The translations under genes were made by a program, and so were the position numbers. A stretch of DNA of 64,000 bases from an uncultured Alphaproteobacteria bacterium (GTDB lineage: Bacteria > Pseudomonadota > Alphaproteobacteria > RF32 > CAG-239). The stretch spans positions 501 through 64,500 of the forward strand of contig CALXVR010000005.1 in NCBI GenBank assembly GCA_944392155.1, read 5' to 3'. Below the pieces are notes generated by a model. That model made no database searches. It was not told the origin of the DNA and worked only from the letters and a program-made list of their open reading frames with translations. Shown here piece after piece: positions 1-8,534 of this stretch. The stretch's first letter is position 1, and each line of letters opens with the position of its first letter.

Positions 1-1
1 G

Positions 2-454
2 AATTCATTCGTTTATGACGGTTCCGGTAAAGTATACAAAGTAGTAGGGGCAACGGGAATTCAGAATACAAATGAAGATAGCATTGAAGCGCTGGTTAAA
101 GCCGGAACTTTGGAAGAAACGGATTTCGTGTTGAATGATGACAAAAGCCAAGCTGTTAAGATTACCATCAACAAAGAAGCCATCAACAACTCAATTACAC
201 AAGTAGAGGCAGCAGTATCCAAGCTTCGTAATATGGCATCAGTATTTGGTAACAACTACTCAATCGTAGAAGGTCGTGAAGAGTTCACCGAGAACTTGAT
301 TAACGTTCTTGAAGAAGGTGCAGATAAATTGACCTTGGCTGATATGAACGAAGAGTCAGCAAATATGTTGGCTCTGCAAACCAGACAGCAGTTGGCTATT
401 AACTCCTTGAGTTTGGCATCACAGGCTGCACAGTCCGTATTGAGCTTGTTCTAA
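2..454 (+). CDS. fliC: Flagellin, C-terminal part (gene starts upstream of the window)
   Basis: Frame is open from position 2. It ends in the flagellin C-terminal D0 motif ADMNEESANMLALQTRQQLAINSLSLASQAAQSVLSLF. Confidence 0.92.
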   Translation, partial: NSFVYDGSGKVYKVVGATGIQNTNEDSIEALVKAGTLEETDFVLNDDKSQAVKITINKEAINNSITQVEAAVSKLRNMASVFGNNYSIVEGREEFTENLINVLEEGADKLTLADMNEESANMLALQTRQQLAINSLSLASQAAQSVLSLF

Positions 455-473
455 TCAGAACAAAAAACGACAG

Positions 474-502
474 AAAAGGCGGAGTTTTCTCCGCCTTTTT
501 TT
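474..502 (+). terminator. Intrinsic terminator after flagellin
   Basis: GGCGGAG-tttt-CTCCGCC followed by T7. Confidence 0.85.
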
Positions 503-548
503 GTTGTGTTTAAATGCGATTCTCTTTATACTAAACGAGTAAGAAAGC

Positions 549-2279
549 ATGAAGAAAGACAGAATGATGTTATCGGATGTAGAATTTGGCAAAAAAATAT
601 ACCAAGAACTTTGTGAAGAGTTTGGAAGCAATTTTTTGTTTTCCACGGGGGCTTCTGTTTTTGCTCAAAATATTACGGCAAAAGATATTGTTAAGTTAAG
701 CTCAGAAGAGATTGATGCCATTCAAAAAGAATATGACAAAGAAAATTGTCGTGAGATTTTTCAGGCGTTCCTTGAACATAAAATTAATCAGGAAGAAGCT
801 CGTTTTCTGCTCAACTATTATCGTGAGGGAATGAAAGCCTATCGCGAAGTATATCGTGCTTTGTATGAAATTTATGGCATTCCGGAGAAAATAGCTTGTA
901 TGAATCCGCTGAATGGTGAGCTGGAAATGCATGTCCAAAAGATTCCGCATGTTGATGCCAAAAACAACAAAATCATCACCATAAGAGAAAATGTTGTAAC
1001 CAATTACAGCCTGAAAGAGGTTACCCCTTTTACCTGTATGCGCTTGGAATACAGAGATACGGAAAATAATCCTGTCTATGTTATTTTGCCGGTAATGAAA
1101 AAAGCTAAAAGAGCTATTGAGAAAATTCAAGATTACCGCAATGAGGAAATGGAAGAAATCAGAAAAATTAATGAAGATTATAAGCAACACGGAGATATAG
1201 AGCGCTTACAAAAAGAACTTTCATCGGTGCGAGGCCACCTAAACCGAGTAAACGACATTTTGCGTTTAACCATCACACGCAAATATTATACCGGTGTGAG
1301 TCGTACCAGAAACACTCTGACCAATGCTCCGAACTTGGGCATAAATCCGGCAGAAACGCGTAGCTTGTTTTATGACAATGATATGAGAAATTGCGCCCAA
1401 CTCAAAAAGAACGGTAAAAACTATTATGACGACAAGCTTTTTATGCACTTGCTTTTAGAAAACGGCGGTGAGTTAAGGGCTGAGGTGCAGCTCAAAATAG
1501 ATATTTTTTATCGTGCAGATTTGCAAACGCATTTGTTGTATGAAGAACAACGAGTATTAGAAGAAAAATTGCGCGCAGAAAAAGAGAAAATGTCTGCTCA
1601 GGAAGTTCAGCGCAATGAATATAAAATTAATCTGCTGAAAAAAAGTATCCAGAAGATTAATAAGCAAGCCAATCACGAATATAATATGATGGTTTTAGAA
1701 AAAGTCCGCTGGCTGGAAGACGGATATAGAGCATTGCGTATACCGCCGGATTATAAAGACGGCACGTACAAAGCCTGCCACGACTTAATAAAAAGTTGTT
1801 ATATGGTTCGTCCGCACAAGATTTTTGATGTTGATAAAGAGTTTGATGTTAAAGATAAGGAAAACATAAGCATTGCCGCTCGCGGAAATTATGACTTAAA
1901 CAGCATTTTTGCCATATCCAAACGCTACCGCAAATCCATCTCGCTTAAATATTCGCCATTGCATGATAAGGTGGATATTACGGGGCAAGATGAAACTTAT
2001 CCGAACTATATTTCGGGCAAAAAATACAATCCCCGCTATGATAAAAGCGATTGGGATGATTATGGCAAAGCGCGCAAGTTTAGGGTGGATATGAACCAAA
2101 ATATTTATCGTGGAAGTTATGATGATAAATATTGGCAGGATTATGCCGCTGCAGAAAATGAGGTGGCAAAACAAGAAAAAAAATTGACGCGCCGCCAAAT
2201 AAGAATGTATCATAAAACAGTCAATCAAAAGCGGATAAAAGGAGAGATTCCGCTATCTGGTCGTTCGTCCGAAAGATAA
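549..2279 (+). CDS. Hypothetical protein with a central RelA/SpoT-like nucleotidyltransferase domain
   Basis: Ordered motifs KKAKRAIEK (184-192), NDILRLTI (235-242), NYYDDKL (291-297), AEVQL (311-315), HLLYEEQR (328-335). Confidence 0.55.
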   Translation: MKKDRMMLSDVEFGKKIYQELCEEFGSNFLFSTGASVFAQNITAKDIVKLSSEEIDAIQKEYDKENCREIFQAFLEHKINQEEARFLLNYYREGMKAYREVYRALYEIYGIPEKIACMNPLNGELEMHVQKIPHVDAKNNKIITIRENVVTNYSLKEVTPFTCMRLEYRDTENNPVYVILPVMKKAKRAIEKIQDYRNEEMEEIRKINEDYKQHGDIERLQKELSSVRGHLNRVNDILRLTITRKYYTGVSRTRNTLTNAPNLGINPAETRSLFYDNDMRNCAQLKKNGKNYYDDKLFMHLLLENGGELRAEVQLKIDIFYRADLQTHLLYEEQRVLEEKLRAEKEKMSAQEVQRNEYKINLLKKSIQKINKQANHEYNMMVLEKVRWLEDGYRALRIPPDYKDGTYKACHDLIKSCYMVRPHKIFDVDKEFDVKDKENISIAARGNYDLNSIFAISKRYRKSISLKYSPLHDKVDITGQDETYPNYISGKKYNPRYDKSDWDDYGKARKFRVDMNQNIYRGSYDDKYWQDYAAAENEVAKQEKKLTRRQIRMYHKTVNQKRIKGEIPLSGRSSER

Positions 2280-2288
2280 GGGGGAAAA

Positions 2289-3461
2289 ATGCTTAAACTT
2301 GCTTTTTTTGTGGTGTCAATGCTCTTGGGGGCTGAATATGCTTTGGCCCAAATCCCCTCAGCACCGGTAAAAAAAGAAAAACCTCAGCTGAGTTTAACTG
2401 ATACTGTTAAAAACATAGACAGAGGTGATGCTGAAAAGCAGGAAGAGGACTCATCCCCAGCCGAAACCCTGGAAGAGGAAGATAAAGGAATTTTTTCTTT
2501 TATGAATTTTTCTTTTTCTAAAAAGAAAGAAAACAAAAAGGTCTATGCTCGTCCGGATGAAAAAAAAGAAAATTTTGTGCAAAGAATAACCAGACAAGCC
2601 GAAGAAGGAGATGTTAACGCCCAGCTGACATTAGGCTATATGTATTTGTATGGAGAAGAAGGCGTCGATATTGATTATGAAAAAGCCTTTCGTTATTATT
2701 CAATGGCGGCAGCGCAGAAAGACAATGTCGCGGTCAATAATTTAGGAAGCTTATACTATAGCGGTATAGGAACAGAAAAAGATTTTCTGAAGGCGGCAAC
2801 TTTGTTTGATGAAGCTGCAAAATTAGGTAATGTCGAGGCCGCCGTTAATCTTGCTTTTATTTATTTAAGCGGTTCCAATGTCGGGAAGAATAGCCAGGCA
2901 GCCATGGAGTTGTTTAAAAAGGCGGCGGAGAAGGGTAATCCTACGGCTAAGTTTATGCTGGGCTATGCCTATTATAAAGGTTTTGTTTATCCTCAAGACT
3001 ATGGTAAAGCCGTTAAACTTATTCGCGAGGCTGCAAACGCTGAATATGCCGAAGCACAATATATGATGGCGGTCTTGTACATGAATGGTCAAGGAATAAC
3101 TAAAAACTATGGTAATGCAGTCAAGTTTTTCCGTCTGGCCGCCGACCAAGGTAATGTAGACGCAATGACGGAACTTGGTGATATTTTAGCACTGGGAAAT
3201 GCTTATCCGAAAGATATTTATACGGCTCATATGCTGTTTAATATTGCAGCAGTCAGAGGCGCACCGAAAGCCGCCGAAAAACGAGATGCCATCGAAAAGG
3301 TTATGAAAATTGAAGAGCTGCTGCAAGCTCAAACATCAGCTGAAAAATTTGTTGAGAAACCATCGGCTCTGACATCATATGTAAAACAAACATTCGGTAG
3401 CGATATTCGAAAATATATTGATGAAAATATAAAAAAATTAGGTACACAAATTCGTAAATAA
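2289..3461 (+). CDS. Sel1-repeat protein with signal peptide
   Basis: Several AQxxLGxMYxxGxGxxxDYxKAxxxyxxAA repeats; hydrophobic N-terminus ending in ALA. Confidence 0.9.
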   Translation: MLKLAFFVVSMLLGAEYALAQIPSAPVKKEKPQLSLTDTVKNIDRGDAEKQEEDSSPAETLEEEDKGIFSFMNFSFSKKKENKKVYARPDEKKENFVQRITRQAEEGDVNAQLTLGYMYLYGEEGVDIDYEKAFRYYSMAAAQKDNVAVNNLGSLYYSGIGTEKDFLKAATLFDEAAKLGNVEAAVNLAFIYLSGSNVGKNSQAAMELFKKAAEKGNPTAKFMLGYAYYKGFVYPQDYGKAVKLIREAANAEYAEAQYMMAVLYMNGQGITKNYGNAVKFFRLAADQGNVDAMTELGDILALGNAYPKDIYTAHMLFNIAAVRGAPKAAEKRDAIEKVMKIEELLQAQTSAEKFVEKPSALTSYVKQTFGSDIRKYIDENIKKLGTQIRK

Positions 3462-3474
3462 CTAGGAATATATC

Positions 3475-4092
3475 ATGTCCCAAAAAGAACTCAGAGAAAA
3501 GTTTTCTAATTCAGGAATTGAGTTTGTAGACATTGAAACCGTCTACTTTAGGGAAGACACAGAGATAGAAGCCGGAACTTTTGTGGAGCCATTTGTGGTC
3601 TTCGGCCCAAAGGTAAAAATCGGTAAGGGCTGTACGATAAAAGCTTTTTCTCACTTGGAAGATGTTGTAATAGAAGATAATTGTATCATCGGTCCTTTTG
3701 CGCGAATAAGAGGCGGTTCTCATATTGCAAGCAATGCCGGCGTAGGCAATTTTGTTGAGGTCGTTCGCTCAACTATCGGCAGCAAAACGGCGGCATGGCA
3801 CTTAAATTATATTGCAGATGCCGAGATAGAGGAAAATGTTGAAATCGGTGGCGGCTTGGTCATCAGCAATTATGATGGTTTCAATAAGCATAAAACCAAG
3901 ATAGCCAAAAACAGTTTTGTCGGCGCGAACACCACACTAATTTCTCCCGCCAATGTAGGTGAGGGCGCTATGGTTGCCGCCGGAAGTGTTGTCTCAGGAG
4001 ATATTGAAGAGGATTCTTTGGTCATTGAACGCAGCCCGCTGATAAAGAAACCTCATGGAGCTTCAAGATATATGCAAAGAAAAAAATCTTAA
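3475..4092 (+). CDS. glmU: Stand-alone GlmU C-terminal acetyltransferase (hexapeptide repeat) domain
   Basis: IGPFARIR, GNFVEV, HLNYIADA and NYDGFNKHKT motifs; no N-terminal uridyltransferase domain (205 aa). Confidence 0.85.
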   Translation: MSQKELREKFSNSGIEFVDIETVYFREDTEIEAGTFVEPFVVFGPKVKIGKGCTIKAFSHLEDVVIEDNCIIGPFARIRGGSHIASNAGVGNFVEVVRSTIGSKTAAWHLNYIADAEIEENVEIGGGLVISNYDGFNKHKTKIAKNSFVGANTTLISPANVGEGAMVAAGSVVSGDIEEDSLVIERSPLIKKPHGASRYMQRKKS

Positions 4093-4103
4093 AATACACG
4101 AAC

Positions 4104-4132
4104 AAAAAACCCCGCAAATTTGCGGGGTTTTT
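4104..4132. terminator. Bidirectional terminator between convergent glmU-C and thrS
   Basis: A6-CCCCGCA-aatt-TGCGGGG-T5. Confidence 0.85.
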
Positions 4133-4150
4133 ATTAAAAGAATAATCAGC

Positions 4151-6082
4151 TTATTCGTGCTTGTGCGGCATCTCGGCTTCTTTAACCAAAGCAGCAATAA
4201 AGTCATCAAGTTTGACTGTTTCTTGCTTCTCTGAGCCAAGGCGACGAACCGTAACTGTGCCGTTTTCTTTTTCCTTAGCACCGACAACGGCAATAACCGG
4301 AATCTTGGCAACGGAATGCTCACGAATTTTGTAGTTAATCTTTTCGTTGCGCAAATCCGTTTTAGCATATAAACCGGCATTTTGAAGTTTCTTCGCAACT
4401 TCTTCAGCATAATCATCAATTTCGCTGACAATCGGACAAACCACAACTTGTTCCGGAGACAACCACAAAGGCAACTTACCGGCATGGTTCTCAATCAAGA
4501 TACCCAAGAAACGTTCAATAGAACCAAACAGCGCACGGTGCAACATAACCGGCTGGTGTTTTTCGCCATCTTCGCCAATGTAGGAGATGTCAAAGCGTTG
4601 CGGTAAGTTCATATCCATCTGTACCGTACCGCATTGCCACTCACGACCGATGGCGTCACGCAAAATAAATTCCAGCTTAGGACCATAGAAAGCACCTTCG
4701 CCTTCATTAATTTCGTATTTATAGCCATTATGTTCGAGAGCGTTAGCCAAAGCTTTTTCGGAGATATCCCAAATCTCGTCGGAGCCGATACGATAAATGC
4801 TGTCCGGACGAGTTGAGAGATAAATTTTAACATCTTCAAAGCCAAAGTCTTTATAGATGTCCAAAATCAGCTTAATGGTCTTAACGCATTCTTCTTCCAT
4901 TTGCTCGGGTGTGCAGAAAATATGCGCATCATCTTGTGTAAATTCACGTACGCGCATCAAGCCCATCAATGAACCGGATGCTTCGTAACGGTTAACCATA
5001 CCAAACTCAGCCACGCGTAACGGCAAATCACGGTAAGATTTTATGCCTTGTTTATAAACCAATAATCCGCCGGGGCAGTTCATCGGCTTAACGCAAAATT
5101 GTTTTTCATCTTCGGTCTTACCGGAATAGTTATGCGCGCCATATTTATCCCAGTGACCGGAGATTTCCCATAAAACGCGGTCCATAATGCGTGGGGTTGC
5201 AATCTCAATATAACCGTTGTGCTCTTGGCGGTTACGCATATATTCAATCAACTTGCGATAGATTTTATAACCTTTATCATGCCAGAAAACGGCACCCGGA
5301 GCATATTCCGGTTCAAAGTGGAACAAATCCATCTCTTTGCCGAGCTTGCGGTGGTCGCGTTTTTCGGCTTCTTCCAACATTTCCAAATAAGCTTTAAGGT
5401 CTTTTTTGTCGGCCCAAGCGGTTGCATAAATACGTTGCAACATTTCTTTGGAGGAATCTCCGCGCCAATAAGCGCCGGCAACTTTCATCAATTTGAAAGC
5501 ATCACCGATTTTACCCGTAGACGGGACATGCGGACCGCGGCAGAGATCGGTAAATGAGCCTTGGCGGTATAAAGAAATTGTTTCATCTTCCGGCAGGTCT
5601 TCAATAATTTCAGCCTTATAAAATTCACCGTTATTTTTGAAGAATTTGATTGCTTCATTGCGCGGCATGACAATGCGCTCTAACTTTTCATCGCGCTTAA
5701 CAATCTCATGCATTTTTGCTTCAATTTTTTCAAAATCTTCGGTCGTAAAGGGTTCTTTGCGAGCAAAGTCATAATAAAAACCGTTTTCAATAGCAGGGCC
5801 GATTGTAACCTGAACATCGGGCCAAAGCTCCTTAACGGCTTGAGCCATAACATGCGAGCAAGAGTGGCGCAAGATGTGTAAGCCTTCCTTATCCTTGCCG
5901 GTGATAATAGTCACGGTTGCGTCGGTAGTGATGGGAGTGCTTAAATCTTGTGTTGTGCCGTTCACGGTGATAGCTAAAGCCGCCTTGGCCAAATTGGGAC
6001 TAATCTTGTTTGCAATGTCAAAACCGTTGACACCGCTTTCCATCTCTAAAATACTACCATCAGGTAATTTTATCGCAACCAT
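4151..6082 (-). CDS. thrS: Threonine--tRNA ligase
   Basis: TGS domain, HSCSH and DLCRGPH editing motifs, KPMNCP, RVREFTQDDAH, HRALFGSIERF. Confidence 0.98.
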   Translation of the reverse strand: MVAIKLPDGSILEMESGVNGFDIANKISPNLAKAALAITVNGTTQDLSTPITTDATVTIITGKDKEGLHILRHSCSHVMAQAVKELWPDVQVTIGPAIENGFYYDFARKEPFTTEDFEKIEAKMHEIVKRDEKLERIVMPRNEAIKFFKNNGEFYKAEIIEDLPEDETISLYRQGSFTDLCRGPHVPSTGKIGDAFKLMKVAGAYWRGDSSKEMLQRIYATAWADKKDLKAYLEMLEEAEKRDHRKLGKEMDLFHFEPEYAPGAVFWHDKGYKIYRKLIEYMRNRQEHNGYIEIATPRIMDRVLWEISGHWDKYGAHNYSGKTEDEKQFCVKPMNCPGGLLVYKQGIKSYRDLPLRVAEFGMVNRYEASGSLMGLMRVREFTQDDAHIFCTPEQMEEECVKTIKLILDIYKDFGFEDVKIYLSTRPDSIYRIGSDEIWDISEKALANALEHNGYKYEINEGEGAFYGPKLEFILRDAIGREWQCGTVQMDMNLPQRFDISYIGEDGEKHQPVMLHRALFGSIERFLGILIENHAGKLPLWLSPEQVVVCPIVSEIDDYAEEVAKKLQNAGLYAKTDLRNEKINYKIREHSVAKIPVIAVVGAKEKENGTVTVRRLGSEKQETVKLDDFIAALVKEAEMPHKHE

Positions 6083-6106
6083 TTTAAAATTTTCCTTTTA
6101 CTTAAA

Positions 6107-7273
6107 TTAATCATTTTTTTTATCAGAAGCTATAAGCTCCTCATAAACCTTGATAGTTTTATCACACATAATTTCTTTTGTGAAGTTGTCTTTTACGTTT
6201 TTTATTGCAGCTTTCGAAATTTTTTCTTCTTCAGCCGGGGAAAGAGACAGAGCCCAATCAATAGCCTCAGCCAAAGAAGCTGCATTGTTATTATAAAAGA
6301 GCTTGCCTGTTTTTCCGTCAACTATACTATCAAGTGAGCCGCCATGATTTGACGCCACAACGATTTTACCCATGGCTTGTCCTTCAATCGCTATTCGTCC
6401 AAAGGCTTCAGGCTCAATAGCCGTAGATAAAATAACATTAGAAACCATCATCAATGCGGGCATATCCAAAACTTTGCCGAATATGGCGACCCGATTCTCT
6501 AACTCGTATTTTTTTATGAGTTTTTTAAGTTCGTTGACATACTCTTCACGTCCCTGCTCATCACCTGCAATAATGCAATAATAATTTTGATTTTTTACTT
6601 GAGAGAGGGCTTCAATCAACAGATGTTGACCTTTCCATCTGGTTATGCGTCCGCCTAAAAGCAAAACTTTTTTATCATCCGGAATATTGTAATCTTGAAC
6701 GGTTTTAATCATTCTTTCGGATGTAACCGCCTCAGGCGAAAACTTTTCGGTGTTAACACAGCGGTGAACTAATCTAATATTTTCCTCTGAAATCTTATAA
6801 TTAGCTAAAATATGCCGCTTAATATGCTCAGAAATGGCGATGACTTTTTCGCCATAAGTCATGATGCGGTTATAAAGCTTTTTGATACCCCAAGGACCAA
6901 GTCCGTAAGTGCCGTGAAATGTTGTCATATAGTGAGCGCCGGCTTTTTTTGCAGCCCAGTAAGCGCTCCAAGCGGGAGCCCGAGAACGAGCGTGAACAAT
7001 GTTAATCCCTTTTTCTTTAATAAACTTTGCCAGTTCCTTAGAGTTTTTACGCATTTTGAAGATATTTTTGGTCTTAAGAGGCAGCGTCAAATGCTCAACC
7101 TTCATTCTTTCCAAATCATAAACCAATCTGCCGCCTTGAGAGGCCACATAGTTTGTAATGCCTTTTTTTTGTAAGCCGCTTGCAATTTCAACCGTGCCGA
7201 TTTCCACACCGCCCATTTCAAGCTCAGGCAAAACCTGCAAGACAACAGGTTTTTGTTCATTCTCTTTAATCAT
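6107..7273 (-). CDS. Glycosyltransferase family 4
   Basis: GGVE, HARSRAPAWS, GRITRWKG and EPEAFGRIAIEGQAMG motifs. Confidence 0.92.
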   Translation of the reverse strand: MIKENEQKPVVLQVLPELEMGGVEIGTVEIASGLQKKGITNYVASQGGRLVYDLERMKVEHLTLPLKTKNIFKMRKNSKELAKFIKEKGINIVHARSRAPAWSAYWAAKKAGAHYMTTFHGTYGLGPWGIKKLYNRIMTYGEKVIAISEHIKRHILANYKISEENIRLVHRCVNTEKFSPEAVTSERMIKTVQDYNIPDDKKVLLLGGRITRWKGQHLLIEALSQVKNQNYYCIIAGDEQGREEYVNELKKLIKKYELENRVAIFGKVLDMPALMMVSNVILSTAIEPEAFGRIAIEGQAMGKIVVASNHGGSLDSIVDGKTGKLFYNNNAASLAEAIDWALSLSPAEEEKISKAAIKNVKDNFTKEIMCDKTIKVYEELIASDKKND

Positions 7274-7405
7274 GATGCAAAAATTCCTCTAAAAACAACG
7301 ACTGTAGCCGTTTTTCTTATGTTTGTCTGACTCTACAATGATTTTTGATTTACGCAAAGCAAAATTTTCAAAATTATCACATAGAAAAATCACATAAGGC
7401 AATGA

Positions 7406-7867
7406 TTAGTAAATGCCTTTGTTGATTGGGTCATCTTGAAGGACGCCTTGCGGACGATAAACATAAATGTTTGTGACGCTGGGGAGATTATAAGTCCTAT
7501 GCCAATAGCCTCTGTCTTCCATGCATAGTCTATACTTTTTGGGGCTGGAATCAGAGTCGTTGCGTAAGCTGTTAACCATGACCGGCATCGCTCCGGGATA
7601 GGGGACATAGCTGGCCCAAATACCTTTTTCGGCATGCCAATCCGCACGAATGTTCATTTTGACTTCTTCAGAGAAGAACCAAGAACGAACATCAGGCAAA
7701 AGCTTAAAATCCTCGGCTTGTCTCATGCATTCGGAGTGATCTCTGGCGAATTTTTGCACACCGGTGTTTTCTCTTTCCCAATGATAAATAACCTGCCCGT
7801 CGCCGTCTTGGAACAGCGTGCATGAAGAAATAAAAAACATAGCCCCGAGAACAATAAATTTATTCAT
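7406..7867 (-). CDS. Hypothetical lipoprotein
   Basis: Start moved to MNKFIVLGAMFFISSC, which ends in a lipobox; abuts the fzlA stop. Confidence 0.7.
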   Translation of the reverse strand: MNKFIVLGAMFFISSCTLFQDGDGQVIYHWERENTGVQKFARDHSECMRQAEDFKLLPDVRSWFFSEEVKMNIRADWHAEKGIWASYVPYPGAMPVMVNSLRNDSDSSPKKYRLCMEDRGYWHRTYNLPSVTNIYVYRPQGVLQDDPINKGIY

Positions 7868-7868
7868 A

Positions 7869-8534
7869 TTAAAAGTCCAAATTCGCATAATGTTTTGCAG
7901 GTAAAATACCTTTGATATTATCTTTCAATATCTCTTTAAAGCTGGGACGAGACTTGATTTTTGAATACCAAAGTTTTGCATTCTTGTAGCCTTCCCACGG
8001 AATATCTCCCAAATAATCCAGAACGGAAAGATGTGCGGCAGCCGCAATATCGGCAACGGAGAAGTCATCACCGGCAAGATAGTTTCGTCTTTCGGCTAAC
8101 CAATCAAGATACTCCATATGAAAATTAAGATTATTCATGCCGATTTTCAATACTTTTGAGTCCGGCGGATTCCCAAAGCCAAAACGCTTATGAATTTTTT
8201 CTTGTACAATATTACGATCAACTTCTCTTGAAAACTTTGCATCAAACCAATCAATCAAGCGACGAACTTCGGCTTTTTGCTTGGGATCGGAAGGCATAAG
8301 CTTAATTTCGCGATTAACCTCTTCCAAAAACTCGGTAATGGCATAGTTTCCGGCAATGACGTTTCCGTCAAAAACAAAAACGGGAAGTTCACCGGAGGGA
8401 TTTAATTTATACAAGTCTTGAGAAGGTTTCCAGGGCTCCTCTTCCTTTAAAACAAACAACATTCTTTTTTCGGCCATAATAATCCGAATTTTACGAGATG
8501 CCGCAGATGCAGGATGATGTATCAGGAGTACCAT
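7869..8534 (-). CDS. fzlA: GST-family FtsZ-binding protein FzlA
   Basis: GST fold (LNPSGELPV, ADIAAAAHLSVLDYLG) with the FzlA-type tail KSRPSF...PAKHYANLDF. Confidence 0.8.
   Translation of the reverse strand: MVLLIHHPASAASRKIRIIMAEKRMLFVLKEEEPWKPSQDLYKLNPSGELPVFVFDGNVIAGNYAITEFLEEVNREIKLMPSDPKQKAEVRRLIDWFDAKFSREVDRNIVQEKIHKRFGFGNPPDSKVLKIGMNNLNFHMEYLDWLAERRNYLAGDDFSVADIAAAAHLSVLDYLGDIPWEGYKNAKLWYSKIKSRPSFKEILKDNIKGILPAKHYANLDF

Follow-up and report, generated by a model that had tools for sequence, protein, structure and literature searches.

A highly divergent RelA/SpoT-like protein family with a putative pyrophosphokinase active site in uncultured Alphaproteobacteria

Introduction

Enzymes of the RelA/SpoT homologue (RSH) superfamily are central to bacterial stress signalling and, as toxic small alarmone synthetases (toxSAS) or secreted synthetases, to phage defence and interbacterial antagonism. 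The subject of this article is an open reading frame (ORF) of 576 amino acids (aa) in a 64,000-nucleotide (nt) stretch of DNA, hereafter the window, from an uncultured chicken-gut alphaproteobacterium (lineage RF32; CAG-239; GenBank assembly GCA_944392155.1, contig CALXVR010000005.1, positions 501 to 64,500). The ORF was listed at positions 549..2279 of the plus strand of the window, and its product is very probably an RSH-fold homologue with an intact active site. A preliminary description, made from the letters of the same DNA, had read it as an orphan, synthetase-only RelA/SpoT-like nucleotidyltransferase encoded behind a flagellin gene. Its observation is confirmed by the present analysis and its interpretation is partly supported.

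The closest described relatives are the small alarmone synthetases of the RelP type, which give the best fold and profile matches. In Staphylococcus aureus RelP (SaRelP), the ATP phosphates are contacted by K80, S84, K88 and R91, Mg2+ is coordinated by D107 and E174, the adenine stacks against R78 and R112, and the ribose is contacted by H190. The acceptor base stacks against the G-loop tyrosine Y151, which is required for guanosine nucleotide binding (Steinchen et al. 2018, PMC5794853). The protein studied here shares with these enzymes the order and spacing of a putative Mg-binding Asp on a strand, a G-loop Tyr, an ExQx(R/K) element and a His 16 residues past the Glu, preceded by a basic motif with i, i+4, i+8 spacing that may be equivalent. 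Both are also synthetase-only: as the preliminary description had stated, the HD, TGS and ACT domains are absent, none being present in a Pfam scan at E ≤ 1. However, small alarmone synthetases measure ~210 aa, whereas the 576-aa protein has in addition a 120-aa N-terminal domain, a helical insert of 40 aa (up to >150 aa in the family) and a 230-aa C-terminal extension. They further form homotetramers with a pppGpp allosteric site, with nothing pointing to either in the present protein, which occurs in Alphaproteobacteria and not in Firmicutes.

Three further groups of RSH enzymes bear comparison. The exported alarmone synthetase SaEAS (8vx3), a very fast (p)ppApp/(p)ppGpp synthetase, has a near-identical strand and helix motif (FEVQFHT...THKLYEEQR, against AEVQLKI...THLLYEEQR here), and both it and the Apk1/Tas1 group of (p)ppApp/(p)ppGpp synthetases (6ox6) are in the list of fold matches. 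Unlike these enzymes, the present protein lacks a Sec signal peptide and any delivery domain, whether PAAR/Rhs, LXG, MuF or another, its gene is not accompanied by a Tis1-type immunity gene, and it occupies a conserved chromosomal position. The toxSAS modules (FaRel, FaRel2, CapRel and PhRel; PMC7229694, PMC11782079) have in common with it the RSH fold (8pu1 and 8pu4 are among the matches), a tight bicistronic layout, here limited to one clade, and additional domains by which activity could be gated, as it is in fused CapRel. They differ in that the partner here is an exported Sel1 protein that is better conserved than the enzyme, that a whole clade has no partner, and that the gene is neither mobile nor in a defence island and has no PADLOC match. 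Long RSH enzymes (Rel, RelA and SpoT) share the synthetase fold (7oiw, 5xnx, 6s2u and 6yxa are among the matches), but their HD hydrolase, TGS, AH/RIS and ACT domains are missing from the protein.

Evidence for an RSH synthetase fold

The fold was addressed with AlphaFold2 (AF2) models, made without templates from alignments of 22–31 sequences, and with two family alignments, one of 31 near-full-length members sharing 21–81% identity (A1) and one of the core alone, residues 158–345 (A2). The full-length model (31-sequence alignment) has a mean predicted local distance difference test (pLDDT) score of 84.6 and a predicted template modelling score (pTM) of 0.77, with residues 10–470 mostly above a pLDDT of 90; the core-only model reaches a pLDDT of 90. 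In a Foldseek comparison of the full model with the Protein Data Bank (PDB), the top 18 matches are all small alarmone synthetases with a probability of ~1.0, among them 2be3, 6fgk, 5ded, 6ewz, 6fgj, 5dec, 5f2v, 6ex0, 6fgx and FaRel (8pu1). These are followed by weak, low-probability helical matches (mTOR and a Megaviridae nucleotidyltransferase), the N-terminal domain of Mycobacterium tuberculosis Rel, and Pol lambda. With the core model, the top 32 matches are all RSH synthetase domains, from E = 1.7e-4, including SaEAS, long Rel of four species, FaRel2 and Tas1. The named top matches in the viral library BFVD include a phage RelA/SpoT, YjbM and a giant-virus relA/spoT nucleotidyltransferase, and the other top matches there are large phage proteins that are uncharacterised or named for other domains. 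A nucleotidyltransferase fold, on which the preliminary description depended, is hence present in the prediction and matches RSH synthetase domains only. The full model has no non-RSH match in the PDB below E = 0.3, and the N-terminal domain has no confident match among solved structures.

Sequence profiles of the family lead to the same group of enzymes. Searched against PDB sequences, the 31-sequence profile has its best match in Bacillus subtilis RelP/YwaC (6fgk; E = 0.0031), followed by 'SaSAS' (SaEAS; 8vx3; E = 0.059) and the GTP pyrophosphokinase 3l9d (E = 0.45), while the core-only profile retrieves 6fgk (E = 0.0065), 8vx3, 3l9d and 2be3. In the resulting alignments, D236 falls opposite the Asp of DIAGVRI, N-Y292-R-D opposite NGYRS, E312-x-Q-x-K opposite AEIQIR, and H328-xx-Y331 opposite HKIY. 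An hhalign comparison of A2 with an alignment of two small alarmone synthetase fragments gives a probability of 83.8% (E = 7.9e-6) in the same register. Identity to small alarmone synthetases is 10–15%. From a single sequence, scans of Pfam, NCBIfam and PADLOC and a phmmer search of PDB sequences yield nothing significant, RelA_SpoT being absent even at E ≤ 1. The earlier reading as a synthetase-only RelA/SpoT-like domain is thus borne out by the fold, for which RSH synthetases are the only matches, but not by the curated profile PF04607, which gives no match. The ~180 aa of N-terminal and ~240 aa of C-terminal sequence that had been noted around this domain contain no recognised domain in the scans, and the helical insert that had been placed between the first two motifs appears in the model as helices at 186–214 and 217–225.

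The conserved active site

All motifs named in the preliminary description were located by script in the 576-aa ORF exactly where, and in the order in which, it had put them: K184KAKRAIEK192, D236ILRLTI242, Y293-D294, A311EVQL315 and H328LLYEEQR335. Nine columns are invariant in the 31 aligned members (K184, R188, K192, D236, R239, E312, H328, Y331 and R335), and Q314, K316 and E332 are conserved at ≥90%. All nine fall inside these 31 motif residues of the 576 (hypergeometric P ~1e-12), so that the residues singled out beforehand turn out to be the invariant columns of the family. One detail required correction. The third motif has the family consensus K-N-Y-R-D-x-K and reads K290-N-Y-Y-D-D-K296 in the window; it lies where Y293D had been reported, but the conserved aromatic residue of the G-loop is Y292 (Y, F or H across the family), not Y293. 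A protein-kinase reading of 'YRDxK' was considered and rejected, as its Asp position is Asp or Asn rather than invariant and a kinase fold is absent among the structure matches.

Projected onto SaRelP, the residues D107, Y151, E174 and H190 align with D236, Y292, E312 and H328, respectively, and the His lies 16 residues past the Glu in both proteins. K80/S84/K88 would correspond to K184/R188/K192, whose i, i+4, i+8 spacing is identical and which lie where a strand passes into a helix. The catalytic-strand element ExQxRT is represented by E312-V-Q314-L-K316, with Lys for Arg and Ile for Thr. Judged by these correspondences, D236 and E312 are putative Mg2+ ligands, and the full catalytic constellation, namely the metal ligands, the ExQ strand, the ribose His and the aromatic residue of the G-loop, appears to be kept. 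The coordinates of the domains and motifs, together with those of the neighbouring genes, are collected in Table 1.

Table 1. Features of the enzyme gene and its surroundings, in nucleotide positions of the window
Feature	Position	Strand	Remarks
Flagellin gene, 3' end	2..454	+	Pfam Flagellin_C, E=2.5e-9
Intrinsic terminator of the flagellin gene	472..501	+	13-bp stem and T-run; scores as a terminator on both strands
N-terminal family-specific domain	666..1019	+	Residues 40-157; helices 52-109, then beta-strands 114-150; family-conserved, pLDDT >90
Catalytic core, RSH synthetase fold	1020..1583	+	Residues 158-345; core model pLDDT 90; Foldseek, profile and hhalign
K184-x3-R188-x3-K192, putative ATP-phosphate-binding motif at strand-to-helix junction	1098..1124	+	Invariant; spacing as in SaRelP; putative equivalence
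Variable helical insert between motif 1 and the putative Mg-binding Asp	1125..1253	+	Residues 193-235; >150 aa in some members
D236-I-L-R239-L-T-I, beta-strand with putative Mg2+-binding Asp	1254..1274	+	D236 and R239 invariant; D236 aligns to the Asp of RelP DIAGVRI
N291-Y292-Y293-D294-D295-K296, G-loop equivalent	1419..1436	+	Family consensus NYRDxK; Y292 aligns to the Tyr of RelP NGYRS
A311-E312-V-Q314-L-K316, catalytic strand equivalent to AEIQIRT	1479..1496	+	Aligned to RelP AEIQIR
H328-L-L-Y331-E332-E-Q-R335, helix after the catalytic strand	1530..1553	+	H328, Y331 and R335 invariant
C-terminal family-specific helical domain	1584..1958	+	Residues 346-470; long helices 318-395, then a small helical bundle
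Basic C-terminal tail	1959..2276	+	Poorly conserved, low confidence (pLDDT 34-69); net +7 in last 30 residues; ends in Arg
Exported Sel1-repeat protein gene, 390 aa	2289..3461	+	Pfam Sel1, E=1.5e-43, five repeats; signal peptide residues 1-21 (nt 2289-2351)
Stand-alone GlmU C-terminal half (LbH acetyltransferase), 205 aa	3475..4092	+	PRK14353 positions 242-444 of 453, E=1.2e-71, below cut-off

Family distribution and evolution

The family is rare and confined to uncultured Alphaproteobacteria, its taxonomy resting on source names only. Contrary to what had been proposed, the gene is not an orphan: a word-indexed search found 367 homologues at E ≤ 0.001, and 1.84 billion cluster representatives, searched exhaustively with phmmer, contained 41 clusters of the family at 50% identity, with a conserved region at about residues 40–440. 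The best 120 of the 367 homologues are all ~81% identical, 570-aa proteins from metagenome-assembled genomes (MAGs) of gut Alphaproteobacteria; all are annotated as hypothetical, under source names such as 'Azospirillum sp. CAG:239', Candidatus Scatocola and 'Alphaproteobacteria bacterium'. For ten distant clusters, the sole recorded name is 'hypothetical protein', from an Alphaproteobacteria MAG. The orthologues of the closest relatives begin at the residue that corresponds to M7, so translation probably starts from the ATG at nt 567 (M7), which would give a product of 570 aa. An N-terminal F-D-x-(S/G)-(V/L)-S-F-P motif is common to a subclade (P0130, P0137, P0142, P0146 and P0147) and does not occur in the window protein.

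The gene is under constraint, and the constraint is uneven along it. A chicken-gut strain that is ~1% different carries 15 synonymous and 3 non-synonymous variants in the ORF, which indicates a real gene under purifying selection. Compared with the 81% orthologue, non-synonymous divergence (dN) is 0.144 for the enzyme, 0.111 for the Sel1 protein, 0.066 for the glycosyltransferase and 0.018 for ThrS; synonymous divergence (dS) is saturated in this comparison, so that dN values are given here and no dN/dS ratio for the enzyme. In a relative with 78% identity in ThrS, the enzyme reaches just ~29%, and this over part of its length, against 55% for the Sel1 partner; the partner is the better conserved of the two (55–59%, against 27–29% identity for the enzyme). 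The enzyme therefore evolves fast everywhere but in its active site. Its C-terminal tails cannot be aligned but are basic: the charge of the last 30 residues is mostly +2 to +12, with two members at 0 and -1. Arg is the final residue in 19 of 31 members and Lys in 3 of 31; in the window, the last residue is encoded by the codon at 2274–2276. An Arg-ended basic tail may be a terminal signal or an RNA-binding tail.

Genomic context

The gene belongs to one of two clades, in one of which it forms a tight two-gene unit with an exported Sel1 gene. Relatives at 81% identity share the order FlbT, 3–5 flagellin genes, the enzyme, Sel1, helix-turn-helix (HTH) genes, thrS and a glycosyltransferase gene. 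A Sel1 gene also lies directly downstream (gaps of 1–19 nt) of the members P0130, P0138, P0135 and P0143, each 25–26% identical to the window protein; P0135 additionally has flagellin upstream, and P0143 keeps the thrS and glycosyltransferase neighbours. A Sel1 partner is missing from five other members (P0125, P0132, P0139, P0151 and P0160). In a maximum-likelihood tree, the Sel1-paired and Sel1-free groups part at a single branch with a support of 100/99: Sel1 is present in 6/6 examined members on the 21-row side and in 0/5 on the 10-row side. The placement next to Sel1 that the preliminary description had noted is accordingly shared by one clade and not by the other. In relatives with ThrS 78–97% identical, the gene is found at a fixed chromosomal site beside thrS and the glycosyltransferase gene, which speaks for vertical inheritance rather than a mobile or island-like element.

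The Sel1 protein had been described as secreted, and the predicted signal peptide (Table 1) agrees with this. All six Sel1 partners compared (window, L001, L005, L006, L007 and L011) have a signal peptide and a G-I-F-S-F-(M/L)-N-F motif, arranged as signal peptide, acidic low-complexity linker, GIFSF(M/L)NF motif and then Sel1 repeats. Among NCBIfam models they come closest to MerG and to MotX, a flagellar T-ring protein, in each case far below the cut-off. The Sel1 protein was also considered as a classical cytoplasmic antitoxin and rejected in that role, given the signal peptide in all 6 loci and the clade without a Sel1 partner.

The further neighbours in the window are less firmly attached. 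The enzyme gene does follow a flagellin gene, as had been observed, but the two do not form one unit, since a strong intrinsic terminator lies between them; the flagellin gene appears to be a separate, terminated unit. Flagellin is absent upstream in L007 and within the short upstream stretches of L005 and L006. Downstream, 9 nt separate the enzyme from the Sel1 gene and 13 nt separate the latter from the GlmU half, which had been taken as a member of the same unit. This was rejected, as HTH genes occupy its place in the 81%-identical relatives. The uridyltransferase half is not beside the GlmU C-terminal half, which could be part of a split glmU, a paralogous acetyltransferase or a remnant.

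Two irregularities concern thrS. Inside the thrS of the window (5093–5334), 240 nt are missing from one contig of DNA run X1, which has a depth of 90 and only 22 nt on its shorter side and probably stems from a conserved thrS segment of another organism. In a close relative (L002 12594–14526, on a 1.89-Mb contig), thrS is called as two ORFs of 391 aa and 256 aa, which reflects a frameshift or assembly error in an essential gene.

Members of the Sel1-free clade are found in unrelated genomic contexts. In three of them, the enzyme follows NfeD, Band_7 and a small unannotated ORF of 117–124 aa (L009 5324–8201; L012 4543–8019; L013 1074–3027). HAD-family phosphatase genes adjoin the enzyme, not always in the same orientation; in L009 an inorganic pyrophosphatase gene lies upstream as well. 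A phosphatase as neighbour of a putative pyrophosphokinase may be meaningful; as a conserved partner of this clade, however, the HAD phosphatase was rejected, as its orientation and position vary. One relative encodes a canonical long RSH with HD, RelA_SpoT, TGS and ACT domains (L014 11299–12049) ~4 kb from the family member, and this suggests that the family is accessory to the canonical enzyme. The long RSH gene of L014 sits beside acpS, lepB, rnc and era.

Proposed function and alternative explanations

From the fold, the conserved catalytic constellation, purifying selection, gene pairing and phyletic pattern, we infer an enzymatic activity, its donor and acceptor, a cell location and such link to Sel1 as there may be. 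The protein would be a cytoplasmic, catalytically competent and highly divergent RSH-fold ATP-dependent pyrophosphokinase, accessory to the canonical long RSH, with a product of the (p)ppGpp/(p)ppApp class and regulatory flanking domains; taken as a whole, this statement is somewhat more probable than its negation. A cytoplasmic location would agree with the enzyme itself, in which neither a signal peptide nor a transmembrane segment was found (maximum 19-residue hydropathy 0.77). In the proposed mechanism, K184, R188 and K192 at the strand-to-helix junction would hold the ATP phosphates, D236 and E312 would hold the Mg2+ that kinks ATP, and H328 would contact the donor ribose, while Y292, in the G-loop equivalent, would stack on the acceptor base. 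The acceptor probably bears a base, and the beta,gamma-pyrophosphate would be moved to the 3'-OH of a purine nucleotide or nucleotide-like end. The resulting molecule would be of the alarmone type, in the (p)ppGpp or (p)ppApp class; that it is a classical alarmone is a plausible outcome, with the odds leaning slightly the other way. The N-terminal domain (40–157), the insert (193–235) and the C-terminal helical domain with its basic tail (346–576) presumably regulate or target the core. The pairing with Sel1 in one clade would reflect co-regulation with an envelope or flagellar-region function, not toxin neutralisation.

Several points weigh against this reading. With the curated PF04607 profile, none of the 31 members is matched at E < 0.05 and a single one reaches E = 0.073, and a core-profile search of 5.8 billion proteins returned fragments of the same family only, with no bridge to PF04607-annotated proteins found. 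The TM-scores of the Foldseek matches are only 0.35–0.43 (~0.4), which marks a distant relative rather than a typical RSH member. Within the active site, the mapping of K184/R188/K192 relies on spacing and secondary structure; R78 and R91 of SaRelP, which stack on adenine and bind phosphate, respectively, have no equivalents, R239 is two residues off the position of RelP R112, and RelP Ser84 is replaced by Arg (R188). Two sequencing runs labelled 'METAGENOMIC RNA-Seq' (X7 and X15) give, on positions 1–8000 of the window, contigs of flat depth up to 39 kb with genes on both strands; they therefore behave as DNA and are uninformative on transcription or co-transcription. Finally, the fast evolution (dN of 0.144, compared with 0.018 for ThrS) and the Arg-ended basic tails would fit an effector or toxin as readily as a regulator.

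A bolder proposal, and a fairly unlikely one, is that the family forms a deep, unrecognised RSH branch whose product is something other than (p)ppGpp, either a new nucleotide messenger or a pyrophosphorylated macromolecule. Its extra domains, together with Sel1 and the flagellar region in one clade, would tie this chemistry to the status of envelope or motility, or else the Arg-terminated basic tail would act as an export signal.

The protein might instead be a toxSAS-like toxic RSH that is self-inhibited by its extra domains, as in fused CapRel, and that, when triggered for instance by phage infection, would arrest growth by pyrophosphorylating tRNA 3' ends or by making (pp)pApp. In its favour, the fold matches include FaRel, FaRel2 and Tas1, the large unexplained N- and C-terminal domains come with a basic tail that could bind RNA, the gene evolves fast, and the EVQ...TH.LYEEQR motif is closest to that of SaEAS, which is toxic if retained in the cytoplasm. 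However, the best fold matches are the housekeeping enzymes SAS1 and SAS2, and PADLOC has no match. No conserved neighbour resembling a cytoplasmic antitoxin or an alarmone hydrolase was found at the loci, where the Sel1 protein is exported and is missing from one clade (10 members). The fixed chromosomal site and vertical inheritance among relatives with ThrS 78–97% identical also count against a toxin, which is distinctly unlikely.

That the RSH fold has been kept while its chemistry or role has changed is quite improbable. On this account the protein would work as a nucleotidyltransferase or kinase on an acceptor other than a nucleotide (a protein, sugar or envelope precursor), or as a nucleotide sensor without turnover. 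The missing equivalents of SaRelP R78 and R91, the Ser-to-Arg change in motif 1, the invariant residues peculiar to the family (R239, Y331 and R335), a TM-score of only ~0.4 and envelope or flagellar neighbours (Sel1, the GlmU half and the glycosyltransferase) would all be accommodated. Yet the two metal ligands have been retained along with the ExQ strand, the His that would contact the ribose and the aromatic G-loop residue, which would amount to the full pyrophosphate-transfer set for a base-bearing acceptor, and a pseudoenzyme would not be expected to hold D236 and E312 invariant at 21% identity.

Positively charged C-terminal signals occur in type IV secretion, and the basic tails of the family resemble them. 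An enzyme or effector exported in this way, or via the flagellar type III apparatus, as in exported alarmone synthetases, is highly improbable nonetheless. Flagellin genes immediately precede the enzyme gene in the window, the 81% relatives and one 25%-identical member, the unalignable basic tails are Arg-ended in 19/31 members, and the Sel1 partner is itself exported; exported RSH enzymes tied to several secretion systems are also documented (PMC12691689). Against this, neither a Sec signal nor a hydrophobic segment was found in the protein, the LXG, PAAR/Rhs, XopAD, MuF and DUF4157 domains listed for such enzymes (PMC12691689) are absent in the Pfam scan, and the model shows a confident helix at the N-terminus. 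Upstream flagellin is missing in L007 and from the short upstream stretches of L005 and L006, and the Sel1-free clade occurs in unrelated contexts.

Lastly, it is scarcely credible that the RSH likeness is convergent or a modelling artefact concealing an unrelated fold and function, for although curated profiles lack significance, sequence E-values are marginal (0.003–0.99) and the AF2 models derive from shallow alignments of 22–31 sequences, profile-to-sequence, profile-to-profile and structure comparisons agree on one register, the models are template-free, and the match lists are exclusively RSH ahead of any other fold.

Implications

Surveys of RSH enzymes rely on profile hidden Markov models (HMMs). 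A family that keeps the catalytic set yet has escaped PF04607 indicates that such surveys miss deep branches. The divergent pyrophosphokinase proposed here would also represent a new architecture, an RSH core flanked by two unrecognised domains. Its genetic link with an exported Sel1-repeat protein, frequently located next to flagellin genes, is likewise new; the bacteria concerned are abundant but uncultured Alphaproteobacteria from the guts of poultry and other hosts. The identity of its product would either add an accessory source of alarmones to a little-studied lineage or reveal a new target of pyrophosphorylation.

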